Positions 6,537 through 44,823 of a stretch of 64,000 bases of DNA are shown here, one piece after another; the first letter of the stretch is position 1, and each line of letters starts with the position of its first letter. The stretch lies in NCBI RefSeq assembly GCF_000027125.1, contig NC_017626.1. One strand, written 5' to 3'. The notes under the pieces were generated by a model. It had not been told where the DNA came from, did no database searches, and worked only from the letters and a program-made list of their open reading frames with translations. Position numbers and translations under genes: made by a program. Origin of the DNA: Escherichia coli 042 (GTDB taxonomy: Bacteria > Pseudomonadota > Gammaproteobacteria > Enterobacterales > Enterobacteriaceae).

Positions 6537-7190
6537 CTTAAGAAGTCCGTCGGTCAGGGGGAGCATGAACTCTCCATCCTCACCGGAGTTGAGCTGGTTG
6601 TCAAACGTGGCGAGACCATCGCACTGGTGGGCGAGTCGGGATCGGGTAAGTCAACCTTGCTGGCGATCCTCGCCGGGCTGGATGACGGCAGCAGTGGCGA
6701 AGTGAGTCTGGTGGGACAACCTCTACATAATATGGACGAAGAAGCGCGGGCAAAGTTGCGCGCGAAGCACGTAGGCTTTGTTTTTCAGTCATTTATGTTA
6801 ATTCCTACCCTTAACGCGCTGGAAAACGTCGAGCTTCCGGCGCTGCTGCGCGGTGAGAGTAGCGCAGAAAGTCGTAACGGGGCGAAAGCGTTGCTCGAAC
6901 AGTTAGGGCTGGGTAAACGTCTGGATCATCTTCCGGCACAGCTTTCTGGCGGTGAACAGCAACGAGTGGCACTGGCACGAGCCTTTAACGGTCGACCTGA
7001 TGTGCTGTTTGCCGACGAACCCACCGGCAACCTTGACCGCCAGACCGGCGATAAAATTGCCGACCTGCTGTTTTCCCTCAACCGTGAACATGGCACCACG
7101 TTGATTATGGTGACCCACGACCTGCAACTGGCGGCACGCTGCGACCGCTGCTTACGGCTGGTGAACGGGCAGTTGCAGGAGGAAGCATGA
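6504..7190 (+). CDS. ybbA: ABC transporter ATP-binding protein YbbA
   Basis: 228 aa with Walker A GESGSGKST and LSGGEQQR signature; divergent from tesA, cotranscribed with ybbP. Confidence 0.9.
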   Translation: MPAENIVEVHHLKKSVGQGEHELSILTGVELVVKRGETIALVGESGSGKSTLLAILAGLDDGSSGEVSLVGQPLHNMDEEARAKLRAKHVGFVFQSFMLIPTLNALENVELPALLRGESSAESRNGAKALLEQLGLGKRLDHLPAQLSGGEQQRVALARAFNGRPDVLFADEPTGNLDRQTGDKIADLLFSLNREHGTTLIMVTHDLQLAARCDRCLRLVNGQLQEEA

Positions 7191-9601
7191 TTGCACGTTG
7201 GTTCTGGCGCGAATGGCGTTCGCCGTCGCTATTAATTGTCTGGCTGGCGCTAAGCCTGGCGGTGGCCTGCGTGCTGGCGCTGGGCAATATCAGCGATCGC
7301 ATGGAGAAGGGCTTAAGCCAGCAAAGCCGTGAGTTTATGGCGGGCGATCGGGCGTTGCGCAGTTCGCGCGAAGTGCCGCAAGCGTGGCTGGAGGAAGCGC
7401 AAAAGCGCGGCCTGAAAGTCGGCAAGCAGCTGACTTTCGCCACCATGACATTTGCAGGCGACACACCGCAGCTGGCGAACGTCAAAGCGGTGGATGATAT
7501 CTACCCGATGTATGGCGATCTGCAAACTAATCCCCCTGGCCTGAAACCGCAGGCGGGCAGCGTATTGCTGGCCCCACGCCTGATGGCACTGCTTAACCTG
7601 AAAACGGGCGACACCATTGACGTGGGCGATGCCACCTTGCGGATTGCCGGAGAAGTGATTCAGGAACCGGATTCCGGTTTTAACCCCTTCCAGATGGCTC
7701 CGCGTCTGATGATGAATCTGGCGGATGTTGATAAAACCGGAGCCGTGCAGCCGGGGAGTCGGGTCACCTGGCGTTATAAATTCGGCGGCAGCGAGAATCA
7801 GCTCGACGGCTATGAGAAATGGTTGTTACCCCAGCTTAAACCCGAACAACGCTGGTACGGTCTGGAACAGGACGAAGGCGCGCTGGGGCGCTCGATGGAA
7901 CGCTCGCAACAGTTCCTGCTGCTTTCGGCGCTTCTGACCTTGCTGCTGGCAGTGGCAGCGGTGGCGGTGGCGATGAATCATTACTGTCGCAGTCGATACG
8001 ATCTTGTGGCGATCCTCAAAACGCTGGGGGCAGGGCGAGCGCAACTGCGTAAGCTAATCGTCGGTCAGTGGTTGATGGTGCTGGCGCTTTCAGCCGTTAC
8101 CGGCGGGGCGATAGGCCTGTTGTTCGAAAACGTGTTGATGGTGCTGCTCAAGCCCGTTCTGCCTGCTGCACTACCGCCTGCCAGCCTCTGGCCGTGGCTG
8201 TGGGCGCTGGGCACCATGACGGTCATCTCGCTGCTGGTGGGGCTACGACCGTACCGCCTGTTGTTGGCAACGCAGCCTTTACGCGTATTGCGTAATGATG
8301 TGGTCGCGAACGTCTGGCCGCTCAAGTTTTATCTGCCGATTGTCAGTGTGGTGGTTGTGCTGCTGCTCGCCGGATTAATGGGCGGCAGTATGCTGCTCTG
8401 GGCGGTGCTGGCGGGCGCGGTAGTGCTGGCTTTGCTGTGCGGTGTGCTGGGCTGGATGCTGCTGAATGTACTTCGCCGCATGACGCTGAAATCGCTACCT
8501 CTGCGCCTGGCGGTTAGCCGCCTGTTACGTCAGCCGTGGTCAACGTTAAGCCAGCTTTCGGCATTTTCGCTCTCCTTTATGCTACTGGCACTGCTGCTGG
8601 TGTTGCGTGGCGATCTGCTCGACCGCTGGCAGCAGCAGCTACCGCCAGAAAGCCCGAACTACTTTTTAATCAACATCGCCACAGAACAGGTTACACCGCT
8701 AAAAGCGTTCCTCGCGGAACATCAGATAGTCCCGGAATCATTTTATCCGGTGGTGCGGGCGCGGCTGACGGCGATTAACGACAAGCCGACAGAAGGCAAT
8801 GAAGATGAGGCGCTTAACCGCGAACTCAATCTTACCTGGCAAAATACGCGGCCCGATCATAATCCGATTGTTGCCGGTAACTGGCCGCCAAAAGCCGATG
8901 AAGTGTCGATGGAAGAGGGGCTGGCGAAACGCTTAAACGTTGCCCTCGGAGATACCGTGACTTTTATGGGCGATACCCAGGAGTTCCGCGCTAAAGTGAC
9001 CAGCCTGCGCAAAGTGGACTGGGAAAGTCTGCGGCCTAATTTCTATTTTATTTTCCCGGAAGGGGCATTAGACGGGCAGCCGCAGAGCTGGCTTACCAGT
9101 TTCCGCTGGGAGAATGGCAACGGCATGTTGACGCAACTCAACCGCCAGTTCCCGACCATTAGCCTGTTAGACATTGGCGCGATTTTAAAACAGGTCGGCC
9201 AGGTGCTGGAGCAGGTAAGTCGGGCGCTGGAAGTGATGGTGGTGCTGGTCACCGCCTGCGGTATGTTGCTGTTGCTGGCACAGGTGCAGGTGGGAATGCG
9301 TCAGCGTCATCAGGAGCTGGTGGTGTGGCGCACACTCGGTGCGGGGAAAAAACTACTACGCACGACATTGTGGTGTGAGTTCGCCATGCTCGGGTTTGTT
9401 TCTGGCCTGGTGGCCGCAATTGGTGCGGAAACGGCGCTGGCAGTGTTGCAGGCGAAAGTGTTTGATTTCCCGTGGGAGCCAGACTGGCGATTGTGGGTTG
9501 TGCTGCCGTGCAGCGGTGCGCTGCTGCTGTCGCTTTTCGGCGGCTGGCTGGGTGCGCGACTGGTTAAGGGTAAGGCGCTGTTCAGGCAGTTTGCGGGGTG
9601 A
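7187..9601 (+). CDS. ybbP: ABC transporter permease YbbP (FtsX-like, two permease domains)
   Basis: 804 aa polytopic membrane protein, 4-bp overlap with ybbA. Confidence 0.9.
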   Translation: MIARWFWREWRSPSLLIVWLALSLAVACVLALGNISDRMEKGLSQQSREFMAGDRALRSSREVPQAWLEEAQKRGLKVGKQLTFATMTFAGDTPQLANVKAVDDIYPMYGDLQTNPPGLKPQAGSVLLAPRLMALLNLKTGDTIDVGDATLRIAGEVIQEPDSGFNPFQMAPRLMMNLADVDKTGAVQPGSRVTWRYKFGGSENQLDGYEKWLLPQLKPEQRWYGLEQDEGALGRSMERSQQFLLLSALLTLLLAVAAVAVAMNHYCRSRYDLVAILKTLGAGRAQLRKLIVGQWLMVLALSAVTGGAIGLLFENVLMVLLKPVLPAALPPASLWPWLWALGTMTVISLLVGLRPYRLLLATQPLRVLRNDVVANVWPLKFYLPIVSVVVVLLLAGLMGGSMLLWAVLAGAVVLALLCGVLGWMLLNVLRRMTLKSLPLRLAVSRLLRQPWSTLSQLSAFSLSFMLLALLLVLRGDLLDRWQQQLPPESPNYFLINIATEQVTPLKAFLAEHQIVPESFYPVVRARLTAINDKPTEGNEDEALNRELNLTWQNTRPDHNPIVAGNWPPKADEVSMEEGLAKRLNVALGDTVTFMGDTQEFRAKVTSLRKVDWESLRPNFYFIFPEGALDGQPQSWLTSFRWENGNGMLTQLNRQFPTISLLDIGAILKQVGQVLEQVSRALEVMVVLVTACGMLLLLAQVQVGMRQRHQELVVWRTLGAGKKLLRTTLWCEFAMLGFVSGLVAAIGAETALAVLQAKVFDFPWEPDWRLWVVLPCSGALLLSLFGGWLGARLVKGKALFRQFAG

Positions 9602-9609
9602 TGACAGGC

Positions 9610-9725
9610 GTTAGATTGCCTGATGCGCTACGCTTAACAGGCCCACGAGGATCGTGCAATATATTGATTTTGCAAGATTGTGTAGGCCGGATAAGGCGTT
9701 TACGCCGCATCTGGCATGAACAGTG
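9610..9725. repeat. REP-type palindromic units
   Basis: Motifs gcctgatgcgctacgc... and tgtaggccggataaggcgtttacgccgcatctggc directly after the ybbP stop. Confidence 0.6.
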
Positions 9726-9818
9726 TGCATTTTGGCAATAAATATGAAACCAACTGTCATGTCGGTTTTTTTAAAGGCCGAAGGTGGTAAACCTTCGGCC
9801 TTAGCTACGTTTCCTCAG

Positions 9819-9902
9819 TTATTCAATAAACTGACGGATCAGTTCCAGCAGCGCGATTAGCGCCTTAAGAACGATGAGAACTTTATCGAGAAAAGTTTTC
9901 AT
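9819..9902 (-). CDS. candidate type I toxin peptide (27 aa, DinQ/TisB/ZorO-like amphipathic helix)
   Basis: My translation of the minus strand: GGGAG SD, 6 nt, then ATG AAA ACT TTT ... GAA TAA = MKTFLDKVLIVLKALIALLELIRQFIE. Too short for the ORF track. Leu/Ile-rich single helix typical of small membrane-active toxins. Confidence 0.5.
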   Translation of the reverse strand: MKTFLDKVLIVLKALIALLELIRQFIE

Positions 9903-9975
9903 CCGTTGCTCCCTTAAGGGAGAAAGACAATCACAGCTTACCCTTACGTTGCCTGTAACTATGATTTTCTTCATG

Positions 9976-9991
9976 TGCTAGATGAGGACTG
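9976..9991. promoter_or_regulatory. 16-nt element tgctagatgaggactg, identical to the 5' end of the downstream sRNA candidate; predicted antisense target in the toxin 5' UTR
   Basis: Exact 16-nt direct repeat of 10162-10177, ~75-90 nt upstream of the toxin ATG on the toxin-coding strand. Confidence 0.4.
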
Positions 9992-10127
9992 CCTCTCTCC
10001 AAATTAGAGCACCAGAATCAGCACCACCTGTATCCTGACCAGGACTTAAAAGTACTTTTCCGCACTGCGGTAATCCCTTGAGGCAGTATCACTACTAGCG
10101 TCGGGATTGTATCGCCAACATAGCTGT

Positions 10128-10156
10128 TTGAATATGTAGGCATCCTGACTTATAAT
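10128..10156 (+). promoter_or_regulatory. sigma70-type promoter (TTGAAT, 17-bp spacer, TATAAT)
   Basis: -35 TTGAAT at 10128-10133 and -10 TATAAT at 10151-10156 with a 17-bp spacer; near-consensus in an intergenic region. Confidence 0.55.
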
Positions 10157-10162
10157 TCACTT

Positions 10163-10250
10163 GCTAGATGAGGACTGTTTCATTTCTACCCGGAACCACC
10201 AAGTCTTGGGCGGAAAAAATAAAAAAACCGACTGTCATGTCGGTTTTTTT
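10163..10250 (+). ncRNA. candidate small RNA (~88 nt), putative antitoxin of the type I toxin
   Basis: Predicted start ~7 nt after the -10; ends in an intrinsic terminator (accgac-tgtcat-gtcggt stem then T7 at 10244-10250). The first ~16 nt repeat the 9976-9991 element. Confidence 0.5.
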
Positions 10251-10313
10251 ATATCTGTATTCTGGTGCAACCATTCTGTTCTCACGACAATCGCCGTTTC
10301 AGAATACCGTCCA

Positions 10314-11423
<1,110 letters not shown>

Positions 11424-23261: not shown

Positions 23262-23345
23262 ACCTGAATTTACCGCAAAAAAAGCCACGGTATAAACCGT
23301 GGCAAAATCCAACATAGCTAAAAATAATCAGGCGAGTGGTATGAC

Positions 23346-42335: not shown

Positions 42336-43343
42336 ATGAAGATAATCTGCAGATTATTATTGGCAATGGCATGTTTGTGTCTGGCAAACATATCCTGGGC
42401 TACTGTTTGTGCAAATAGTACTGGCGTAGCAGAAGATGAACACTATGATCTCTCAAATGTCTTTAATAGCACCAATAACCAGCCAGGGCAGATTGTTGTT
42501 TTACCGGAAAAATCCGGCTGGGTAGGTGTATCAGCAATTTGTCCACCCGGCACGCTGGTGAATTATACATACCGTAGTTATGTCACCAACTTTATTGTTC
42601 AGGAAACTATCGATAATTATAAATATATGCAATTAAATGATTATCTATTAGGTGCGATGAGTCTGGTTGATAGCGTGATGGATATTCAATTCCCTCCGCA
42701 AAATTATATTCGTATGGGAACAGATCCTAACGTTTCGCAAAACCTTCCGTTCGGGGTGATGGATTCTCGTTTGATATTTCGTTTAAAGGTTATTCGTCCC
42801 TTTATTAACATGGTGGAGATCCCCAGACAGGTGATGTTTACCGTGTATGTGACATCAACGCCTAACGATCCGTTGGTTACACCTGTTTATACCATTAGTT
42901 TTGGTGGCCGGGTTGAAGTACCGCAAAACTGCGAATTAAATGCCGGGCAAATTGTTGAATTTGATTTTGGTGATATCGGCGCATCGTTATTTAGTGCGGC
43001 AGGGCCGGGGAATCGACCAGCTGGTGTCATGCCGCAAACCAAGAGCATTGCGATCAAATGTACGAATGTTGCTGCGCAGGCTTATTTAATAATGCGTCTG
43101 GAAGCCAGTGCCGTTTCTGGTCAGGCGATGGTGTCGGACAATCAGGATTTAGGTTTTATTGTGGCCGATCAGAACGATACGCCGATCACGCCTAACGATC
43201 TCAATAGCGTTATTCCTTTCCGTCTGGATGCAGCTGCGGCAGCCAATGTCACACTTCGCGCCTGGCCTATCAGTATTACCGGTCAAAAACCGACCGAAGG
43301 GCCGTTTAGCGCGCTGGGGTATTTACGCGTCGATTATCAATGA
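42336..43343 (+). CDS. sfmH: fimbrial adhesin-like subunit
   Basis: 335-aa ORF with signal peptide (an internal Met 10 codons in gives 325 aa). Confidence 0.85.
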   Translation: MKIICRLLLAMACLCLANISWATVCANSTGVAEDEHYDLSNVFNSTNNQPGQIVVLPEKSGWVGVSAICPPGTLVNYTYRSYVTNFIVQETIDNYKYMQLNDYLLGAMSLVDSVMDIQFPPQNYIRMGTDPNVSQNLPFGVMDSRLIFRLKVIRPFINMVEIPRQVMFTVYVTSTPNDPLVTPVYTISFGGRVEVPQNCELNAGQIVEFDFGDIGASLFSAAGPGNRPAGVMPQTKSIAIKCTNVAAQAYLIMRLEASAVSGQAMVSDNQDLGFIVADQNDTPITPNDLNSVIPFRLDAAAAANVTLRAWPISITGQKPTEGPFSALGYLRVDYQ

Positions 43344-44746: not shown

Positions 44747-44823
44747 GCGCCCTTAGCTCAGTTGGATAGAGCAACGACCTTCTAAGTCGTGGGCCGCAGG
44801 TTCGAATCCTGCAGGGCGCGCCA
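44747..44823 (+). tRNA. argU: tRNA-Arg (anticodon UCU)
   Basis: 77-nt cloverleaf: acceptor gcgccct.../...agggcgc-CCA, D-arm agctcagttggatagagc, anticodon loop cTTCTAa, T-arm ggttcgaatcc. Confidence 0.95.

Follow-up and report, generated by a model that had tools for sequence, protein, structure and literature searches.

A DinQ/AgrB-type module in the ybbP-mnmH spacer

The 712-bp spacer between ybbP (7187-9601, plus strand) and mnmH (10314-11408, minus strand) in the 64-kb window (the whole stretch of DNA analysed in this study) houses a toxin-antitoxin module that, judged from its sequence, is a member of the DinQ/AgrB type I family (Table 1). We made this assignment because the antisense RNA scores above the gathering score of the Rfam AgrB model (RF02891, 48.1 bits against 40 over the full length 1-84, a match that persists when the entire window is scanned), the toxin peptide scores above the cutoff of the NCBIfam toxin_DinQ model (NF041472, 40.9 bits against 30, residues 5-26), and the locus can be aligned as a whole with its relatives. 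In this alignment, homology to K-12 dinQ-agrA-agrB (located in the gor-arsR spacer) runs from end to end, covering the sRNA, promoter region, leader blocks (AAGTCCTGG, CAGGTGGTGC, and GTGACAGGCA), antisense target, Shine-Dalgarno (SD) hairpin, coding sequence, and terminator hairpin, and the leader and coding DNA is approximately 67-70% identical to that of K-12 dinQ. Six other family loci besides K-12 dinQ-agrA also align over the coding sequence, SD hairpin, leader blocks, -10 element, and terminator. The module is therefore probably a chromosomal paralogue of E. coli dinQ/agrB, whose mechanism can be proposed by homology, and would be one of the 'dinQ-like' (dql) loci, which like it are dinQ homologues outside gor-arsR that coexist with dinQ (PMC5066626).

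Table 1. Features of the ybbP-mnmH toxin-antitoxin locus (positions in the window)
Feature	Position	Strand	Basis
Whole module, present/absent segment of about 571 bp	9730-10300		Comparison with two aligned E. coli genomes that have no module in this spacer
Second copy of sRNA 3' end and terminator, 40 nt, 83% identical	9734-9773	plus	Direct repeat of 10212-10251
Toxin mRNA terminator hairpin, AAGGCCGAAGGT / ACCTTCGGCCTT	9774-9802	minus	Inverted repeat
Toxin coding sequence, 27 codons plus stop, MKTFLDKVLIVLKALIALLELIRQFIE, DinQ-family peptide	9819-9902	minus	ORF reading, NCBIfam match, codon-position bias
SD AAGGGAG (9909-9915), 6 nt 5' of ATG, inside hairpin CUCCC-UUAA-GGGAG able to sequester it	9909-9922	minus	Sequence, palindrome
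sRNA target site in toxin 5' UTR, about +98 to +123 of predicted mRNA, ending 74 nt 5' of ATG	9977-10002	minus	Direct repeat, duplex calculation
Predicted toxin mRNA 5' end (+1 at about 10099), resembling the sRNA head and predicted to pair with the target site	10082-10099	minus	Alignment to K-12 dinQ +1
Predicted toxin promoter -10, TACAAT	10106-10111	minus	Position in 8-way alignment, not mapped
sRNA promoter TTGAAT-17-TATAAT, 10/12 matches	10128-10156	plus	Promoter scan
AgrB-family antisense sRNA of about 87 nt (5' pairing head, central stem-loop with CCACCAA loop, intrinsic terminator)	10164-10252	plus	Rfam, family alignment

A first-pass annotation prepared from the raw sequence had put forward a candidate type I toxin-antitoxin locus resembling zor-orz or dinQ-agr, with a divergent sRNA pairing in trans. 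The two model matches and the whole-locus alignment support this proposal in its dinQ-agr form, while the zor-orz alternative has to be given up (see below), and a locus of this kind thus proved recognisable from raw sequence by a first-stage reader. Its novelty had been overestimated, however, and is low: the family has been described and the toxin gene is already called dinQ in RefSeq, where an ORF of 51 codons (9819-9974) is labelled 'damage-inducible type I toxin DinQ' and the partner sRNA is without annotation in the record checked. The dql genes, among them dqlA and dqlB, were published in 2016 (Kristiansen, PMC5066626); 14 dql genes are shown in a figure of that paper, which notes their co-occurrence with dinQ in some strains, and antisense RNAs for those loci have been predicted by T1TAdb (PMC8594479). 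Two points of the RefSeq annotation may be flagged, namely the term 'damage-inducible' for a gene that has no LexA operator and the length of 51 codons where 27 is the conserved form; the practical value of the result is modest. A full-text search of the literature returned no paper on the E. coli copy at ybbP-mnmH and no expression or toxicity data for it.

Toxin gene and peptide

The 27-codon minus-strand ORF with a good SD that had been reported in the first pass was recovered as such (Table 1). Relatives do not preserve the reading frame of the N-terminal extension of the 51-codon form but do preserve the 27-codon part with its start and SD, and a 27-aa product has been shown experimentally for DinQ (PMC3567139). 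The 51-aa form served as query in the search for homologous proteins. DinQ and DqlB were the only NCBIfam models that matched the peptide at E <= 1. A Pfam-A scan of the 51-aa ORF gave no match; in the protein database the family carries the tag PF28061, presumably from a newer Pfam release than the one scanned.

Substitutions relative to four homologues from other genera (Serratia, Photorhabdus, and Enterobacter) fall mainly on third codon positions (5-9 third, 0-2 second), and with this bias the peptide subfamily shows coding constraint across genera. The same peptide subtype (..DKVLIVLKAL[IV]ALLELIRQFI[DE]) is also represented in database records that bear the names Salmonella, Yersiniaceae, Klebsiella aerogenes, and Enterobacter hormaechei. 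In K-12 dinQ, an equivalent CUCC...GGAG hairpin is found at the aligned position of the SD hairpin, with compensating changes in relatives, and the terminator hairpin follows a conserved GGAAACGTA..TAAGG motif at the same position in all family loci, its stems covarying.

The peptide and DinQ are both 27-aa single-helix peptides with the common core ALIALLELIR. They differ in three extra N-terminal residues of the window peptide, in a mid-helix K for G, and at the C-terminus (QFIE for FLLQLLN), and the window peptide is the more charged and amphipathic of the two (7 charged residues, GRAVY 1.23, and muH 0.43, versus 4, 1.79, and 0.20 for DinQ). In rare E. coli variants (proteins P0026 and P0019), the N-terminal part of the paralogue is fused to the C-terminus of canonical DinQ (...ELIRFLLQLLN and ...ELIRQLLNN); such chimeras suggest recombination or gene conversion between the paralogue and canonical dinQ loci.

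Antisense RNA

The near-consensus sigma-70 promoter previously noticed on the opposite strand is the sole sigma-70-like match in 9550-10400. On the basis of the spacing from its -10 and of the alignment with Rfam and K-12 agrB, the sRNA start is predicted at 10163/10164. The short transcript with an intrinsic terminator, first put at about 88 nt, was recovered as a unit of about 87 nt ending in a 14-bp stem (10219-10252) and a T run. Alignment and consensus structure reveal the features common to AgrB-type sRNAs, namely a 5' head that varies, then a central stem-loop (CCACCAA loop), and a terminator, and the divergent sRNAs of this locus and of K-12 dinQ/agrB share them; K-12 dinQ has two sRNAs, whereas a single sRNA gene is present here.

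A further difference from K-12 dinQ, apart from the other chromosomal site on an indel, is the extra terminator copy, which lies just past the toxin terminator, both copies being inside the indel of about 571 bp. A duplicated terminator 3' of the toxin was absent from the other family loci in which it was sought and is present only in the Escherichia ybbP-mnmH locus. The additional copy may be what is left of a second sRNA gene or a tandem module, and it might also serve ybbP or the toxin gene as a terminator.

Pairing between the sRNA and the toxin leader

The sRNA gene is divergent from the toxin gene and does not overlap it, and the 5' head of the sRNA has its complement in the toxin 5' UTR, ahead of the ribosome binding site. 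The 16-mer TGCTAGATGAGGACTG is present at both 9976-9991 and 10162-10177 (22 nt with 2 mismatches when extended), with about 8e-5 exact 16-mer repeats expected by chance in 851 bp. This repeat had been described before as the first 16 nt of the sRNA. The position given for its leader copy holds, the other copy lies one base away from the earlier placement (10163-10178), and, with the start placed at 10163/10164, the predicted transcript contains 14-15 of the 16 repeated bases, pairing running from the first of them. The leader copy is, as had been claimed, inside the 5' UTR of the predicted toxin mRNA rather than outside it.

The duplex comprises 24 bp over 25 positions (19 Watson-Crick pairs, 5 G·U pairs, and 1 mismatch): from the sRNA 5' end, 14-15 contiguous Watson-Crick pairs are followed by U·G, U·G, U-A, and C-G, the mismatch, and six more pairs, so that the uninterrupted helix at this end is 18 bp long. 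Its energy, calculated for the sRNA head against the target window (an RNAduplex calculation without restriction, made on the complete RNAs, yielded a looped duplex of 130 nt that has no meaning), is -43.3 kcal/mol (-43 to -48 across calculations), compared with -17.5 +/- 3.7 kcal/mol for shuffled sRNA heads. The 24-bp duplex exceeds the T1TAdb criterion of >=15 nt (PMC8594479). For the K-12 RNAs, we obtained -62.3 kcal/mol with a longest uninterrupted helix of 23 bp for AgrB and dinQ, and -46.8 kcal/mol with 9 bp for AgrA and dinQ; AgrA has been reported not to protect against DinQ (PMC3567139). Repression of the toxin by its neighbouring sRNA is thus plausible but not assured, because the predicted energy is no better than that of AgrA and dinQ while the helix is 18 bp instead of 9 bp.

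The position of the pairing is conserved. The target ends 74 nt from the start codon here (approximately 70 nt in K-12 dinQ, and 68-76 nt at the same relative position in eight homologous loci), and 261 nt separate the sRNA 5' end from the ATG, compared with 257-293 nt in relatives. Among the eight AgrB-matching loci, head sequences differ from locus to locus while the target position is fixed; the loci of Serratia, Photorhabdus, Citrobacter, and E. albertii have sRNA heads that each pair with the leader of the same locus (approximately 31-40 bp, -59 to -69 kcal/mol). Co-variation of head and target at a fixed position in relatives supports antisense control.

Toxin promoter, leader fold, and absence of LexA operators

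The predicted toxin -10 occupies a position that is conserved across the 8-way alignment, the relatives and K-12 having TATAAT, TATCAT, and TATGAT there, and the predicted -35 region overlaps that of the sRNA around 10127-10134. The promoter scan of the locus gave no minus-strand match, and definition is weak for both the toxin transcription start and its -35; the K-12 dinQ +1 used for alignment was located from the numbering of G5 and A40 in PMC5066626. In the minimum free energy fold of the predicted leader, nt 107-123 are the partner of nt 1-18, the counterpart in K-12 dinQ being the pairing of nt 1-25 with nt 97-120, and removal of the first 49 nt in silico raises the probability that the target is unpaired from 0.14 to 0.43 (from 0.17 to 0.43 in K-12 when 43 nt are removed). 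The thermodynamic predictions thus run parallel in the two leaders. The dinQ leader structure has been shown experimentally, its primary transcript being inert and binding AgrB poorly until processed (PMC5066626), and the fold predicted here matches this published processing model.

The locus differs from K-12 dinQ in the absence of LexA operators. With a position weight matrix built from LexA boxes, the best score over 9900-10165 was 7.1 bits, against 23.2 and 14.7 bits for the two published operators of K-12 dinQ and 21-23 bits for Citrobacter and Escherichia (including E. albertii) dinQ; the best scores of the relatives in Escherichia sp. E1V33, Serratia, and Photorhabdus khanii (L006-L009) were 1.4-7.1 bits. 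No match to CTGT-N8-ACAG with <=1 mismatch was found in the locus, and no LexA box overlaps the toxin -10, whereas the K-12 TATGAT aligned to it sits within LexA box 1. According to its sequence, this dinQ copy should not be SOS-induced, and the 'damage-inducible' label is unsupported for it because a LexA box is lacking.

A leader block at 10023-10042 (ACCTGTATCCTGACCAGGAC) resembles the weak 'LexA site' described at -119 of plasmid dqlB (ACCTGTTTGTTCAGCCAGGA, HI 11.64; PMC12211044). It was rejected as a LexA box on account of its CTG-N9-CAG spacing, and the dqlB site may simply be the conserved leader element. The top matrix score of the whole window (15.0 bits, TACTGTTTGTGCAAATAGTA at 42401-42420) is probably a chance match because its right half-site is ATAG, not ACAG or CCAG.

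Proposed mechanism

Toxicity of DinQ and its repression by AgrB were shown in 2013 (Weel-Sneve, PMC3567139). If transcripts, start sites, processing, toxicity, and repression are transferred to the ybbP-mnmH locus by homology, the minus strand would give a toxin mRNA of approximately 330 nt (about 10099 to about 9770), a length like that of the K-12 dinQ mRNA. Its 27-aa product would form a single amphipathic or hydrophobic helix, which would depolarise the inner membrane on insertion. Translation of the primary transcript is probably poor, since the 5' end of this RNA would pair with the downstream leader and the SD is in a hairpin; 5' processing would open the leader. The sRNA (10164-10250), which would be constitutively transcribed, may then pair through its 5' head with the opened leader and lead to cleavage or translational silencing.

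Distribution and retention of the locus

The locus is carried by 1325 of 5426 complete E. coli genomes, and the listed carriers each hold canonical dinQ at a second place. About a quarter of E. coli strains thus have a second DinQ-type toxin absent from K-12, which is relevant to work on persistence and on membrane-depolarising toxins. Two genomes with short ybbP-mnmH spacers delimit the present/absent segment, and neither a target-site duplication nor repeats were seen at the indel borders. In K-12, the entire ybbP-mnmH (selU) spacer is replaced by an RhsD element and IS-related remnants (L005, 1331-8633). Because K-12 has RhsD in place of the module, the site is a variable hotspot, for which at least three states are known: empty, occupied by the toxin-antitoxin module, and occupied by Rhs.

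REP-type repeats lie directly 3' of ybbP (9600-9725), with sub-threshold Rfam matches to naRNA4 (CssrE, 9685-9721) and ES036 (CssrF, 9639-9681), and one of the empty-site genomes (L054) has one extra REP unit there. Elsewhere in the window, Rfam gathering scores are exceeded by STnc480 sRNA (23273-23339, plus), a tRNA (44747-44820, plus), and naRNA4/REP (1045-1122, minus).

In some carriers, 108 bp (9880-9987) are missing between the microhomologies GATGAGAAC and GATGAGGAC, and with them the SD, part of the target, and the initial seven to eight codons. Such carriers are estimated at approximately 138 of 1325 (about 10%) from the identity band obtained with a junction query, and alignment verified the deletion in two genomes. 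Because the sRNA gene is intact, these genomes would hold an orphan antitoxin. The deletion raises the question of whether the whole locus might be an eroding relic, its toxin no longer effectively expressed or controlled and its sRNA orphaned or drifting. Rare variants with a lost start codon, read-through, or chimeric ends point the same way, as does the complementarity between sRNA and leader, for which no sampled family member has a lower length (14-15 bp of contiguous Watson-Crick pairs compared with 31-34 in canonical dinQ/agrB; 24 bp with wobbles against 30/31-34). We nevertheless regard erosion as unlikely: about 1187 carriers retain the deletable segment, the window copy keeps the ORF, SD, SD hairpin, -10, both terminators, and the 18-bp helix, and the peptide subfamily is under coding constraint across genera. 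Moreover, loss of the toxin with retention of the antitoxin is what would be expected of an active toxin.

Possible cross-talk with canonical dinQ

The listed carriers hold both loci, and the sRNA has a G where AgrB has an A, which allows G·U pairing with the K-12 dinQ leader at a predicted -42.8 kcal/mol, nearly the -43.3 kcal/mol for its own leader; AgrB pairs more weakly with the window leader (-32.8 kcal/mol). It could be argued from this that the main role of the sRNA is cross-regulation of canonical dinQ mRNA or other targets and not control of the neighbouring toxin. However, these energies are simple duplex values with no accessibility term, an uninterrupted Watson-Crick run is formed only with the neighbouring leader, and co-variation in relatives binds each sRNA to the adjacent toxin, which makes such a main role very improbable.

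A combination of the two is also conceivable, although we think it rather doubtful: an SOS-independent paralogue might stand in a one-way link with canonical dinQ, its sRNA wobble-pairing with both leaders and damping DinQ as well as its own toxin, while AgrB would pair poorly with the paralogue leader. If this were true, carriers would differ from K-12 in the DinQ made after DNA damage, and the paralogue toxin would answer to a non-SOS signal.

Relationship to other type I families

Among known systems other than dinQ itself, plasmid-borne DqlB is close to the chromosomal paralogue described here. DqlB and the window peptide have the C-terminus ELIRQFI(D/E) in common, and the plasmid locus also holds an AgrB-family sRNA (42.5 bits). 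DqlB/AgrB of pOXA-48 was validated in 2025 by toxicity, rescue, and compensatory mutations (PMC12365149). Unlike DqlB, the window peptide is DinQ-like in the middle of its helix and chromosomally encoded. Membership in the DqlB family was rejected (NF041473, 24.5 bits versus a cutoff of 35).

In zorO/orzO of E. coli O157:H7, a divergent sRNA likewise makes a short pairing, reported as 18 nt, with a long 5' UTR (processed in zorO), and the uninterrupted helix of the window pair is of similar length; tisB has a LexA box. That the locus belongs to zor-orz or tisB-istR instead of dinQ-agrB, as the similar layout, the similar Leu/Ile-rich helical peptides, and the 71-74% identity of part of the zor 5' UTR to plasmid dinQ-like leaders (PMC11264685) might suggest, is extremely improbable, and already refuted as far as family models go, given the scores of 24.1 (minus) and 19.5 (plus) bits against a gathering score of 60 for Rfam OrzO-P (RF02083), the lack of a TisB model among the NCBIfam matches at E <= 1, and the lack of a LexA box. 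A deeper shared ancestry of zor and dinQ leaders is possible.

DinQ-family loci were also found in species-representative genomes (47 loci in Escherichia, Serratia, Photorhabdus, Xenorhabdus, Enterobacter, Citrobacter, Pantoea, and Kosakonia), with the ybbP-mnmH site common only to Escherichia sp. E1V33 among those relatives. Photorhabdus and Xenorhabdus (L011-L037) have several DinQ-family toxin genes per genome, most of them without an AgrB match at the Rfam gathering score, and several copies adjoin tRNA, RtT, tmRNA, or phage C4 antisense RNA genes, which points to divergent antitoxin RNAs or prophage-borne copies in these two genera.
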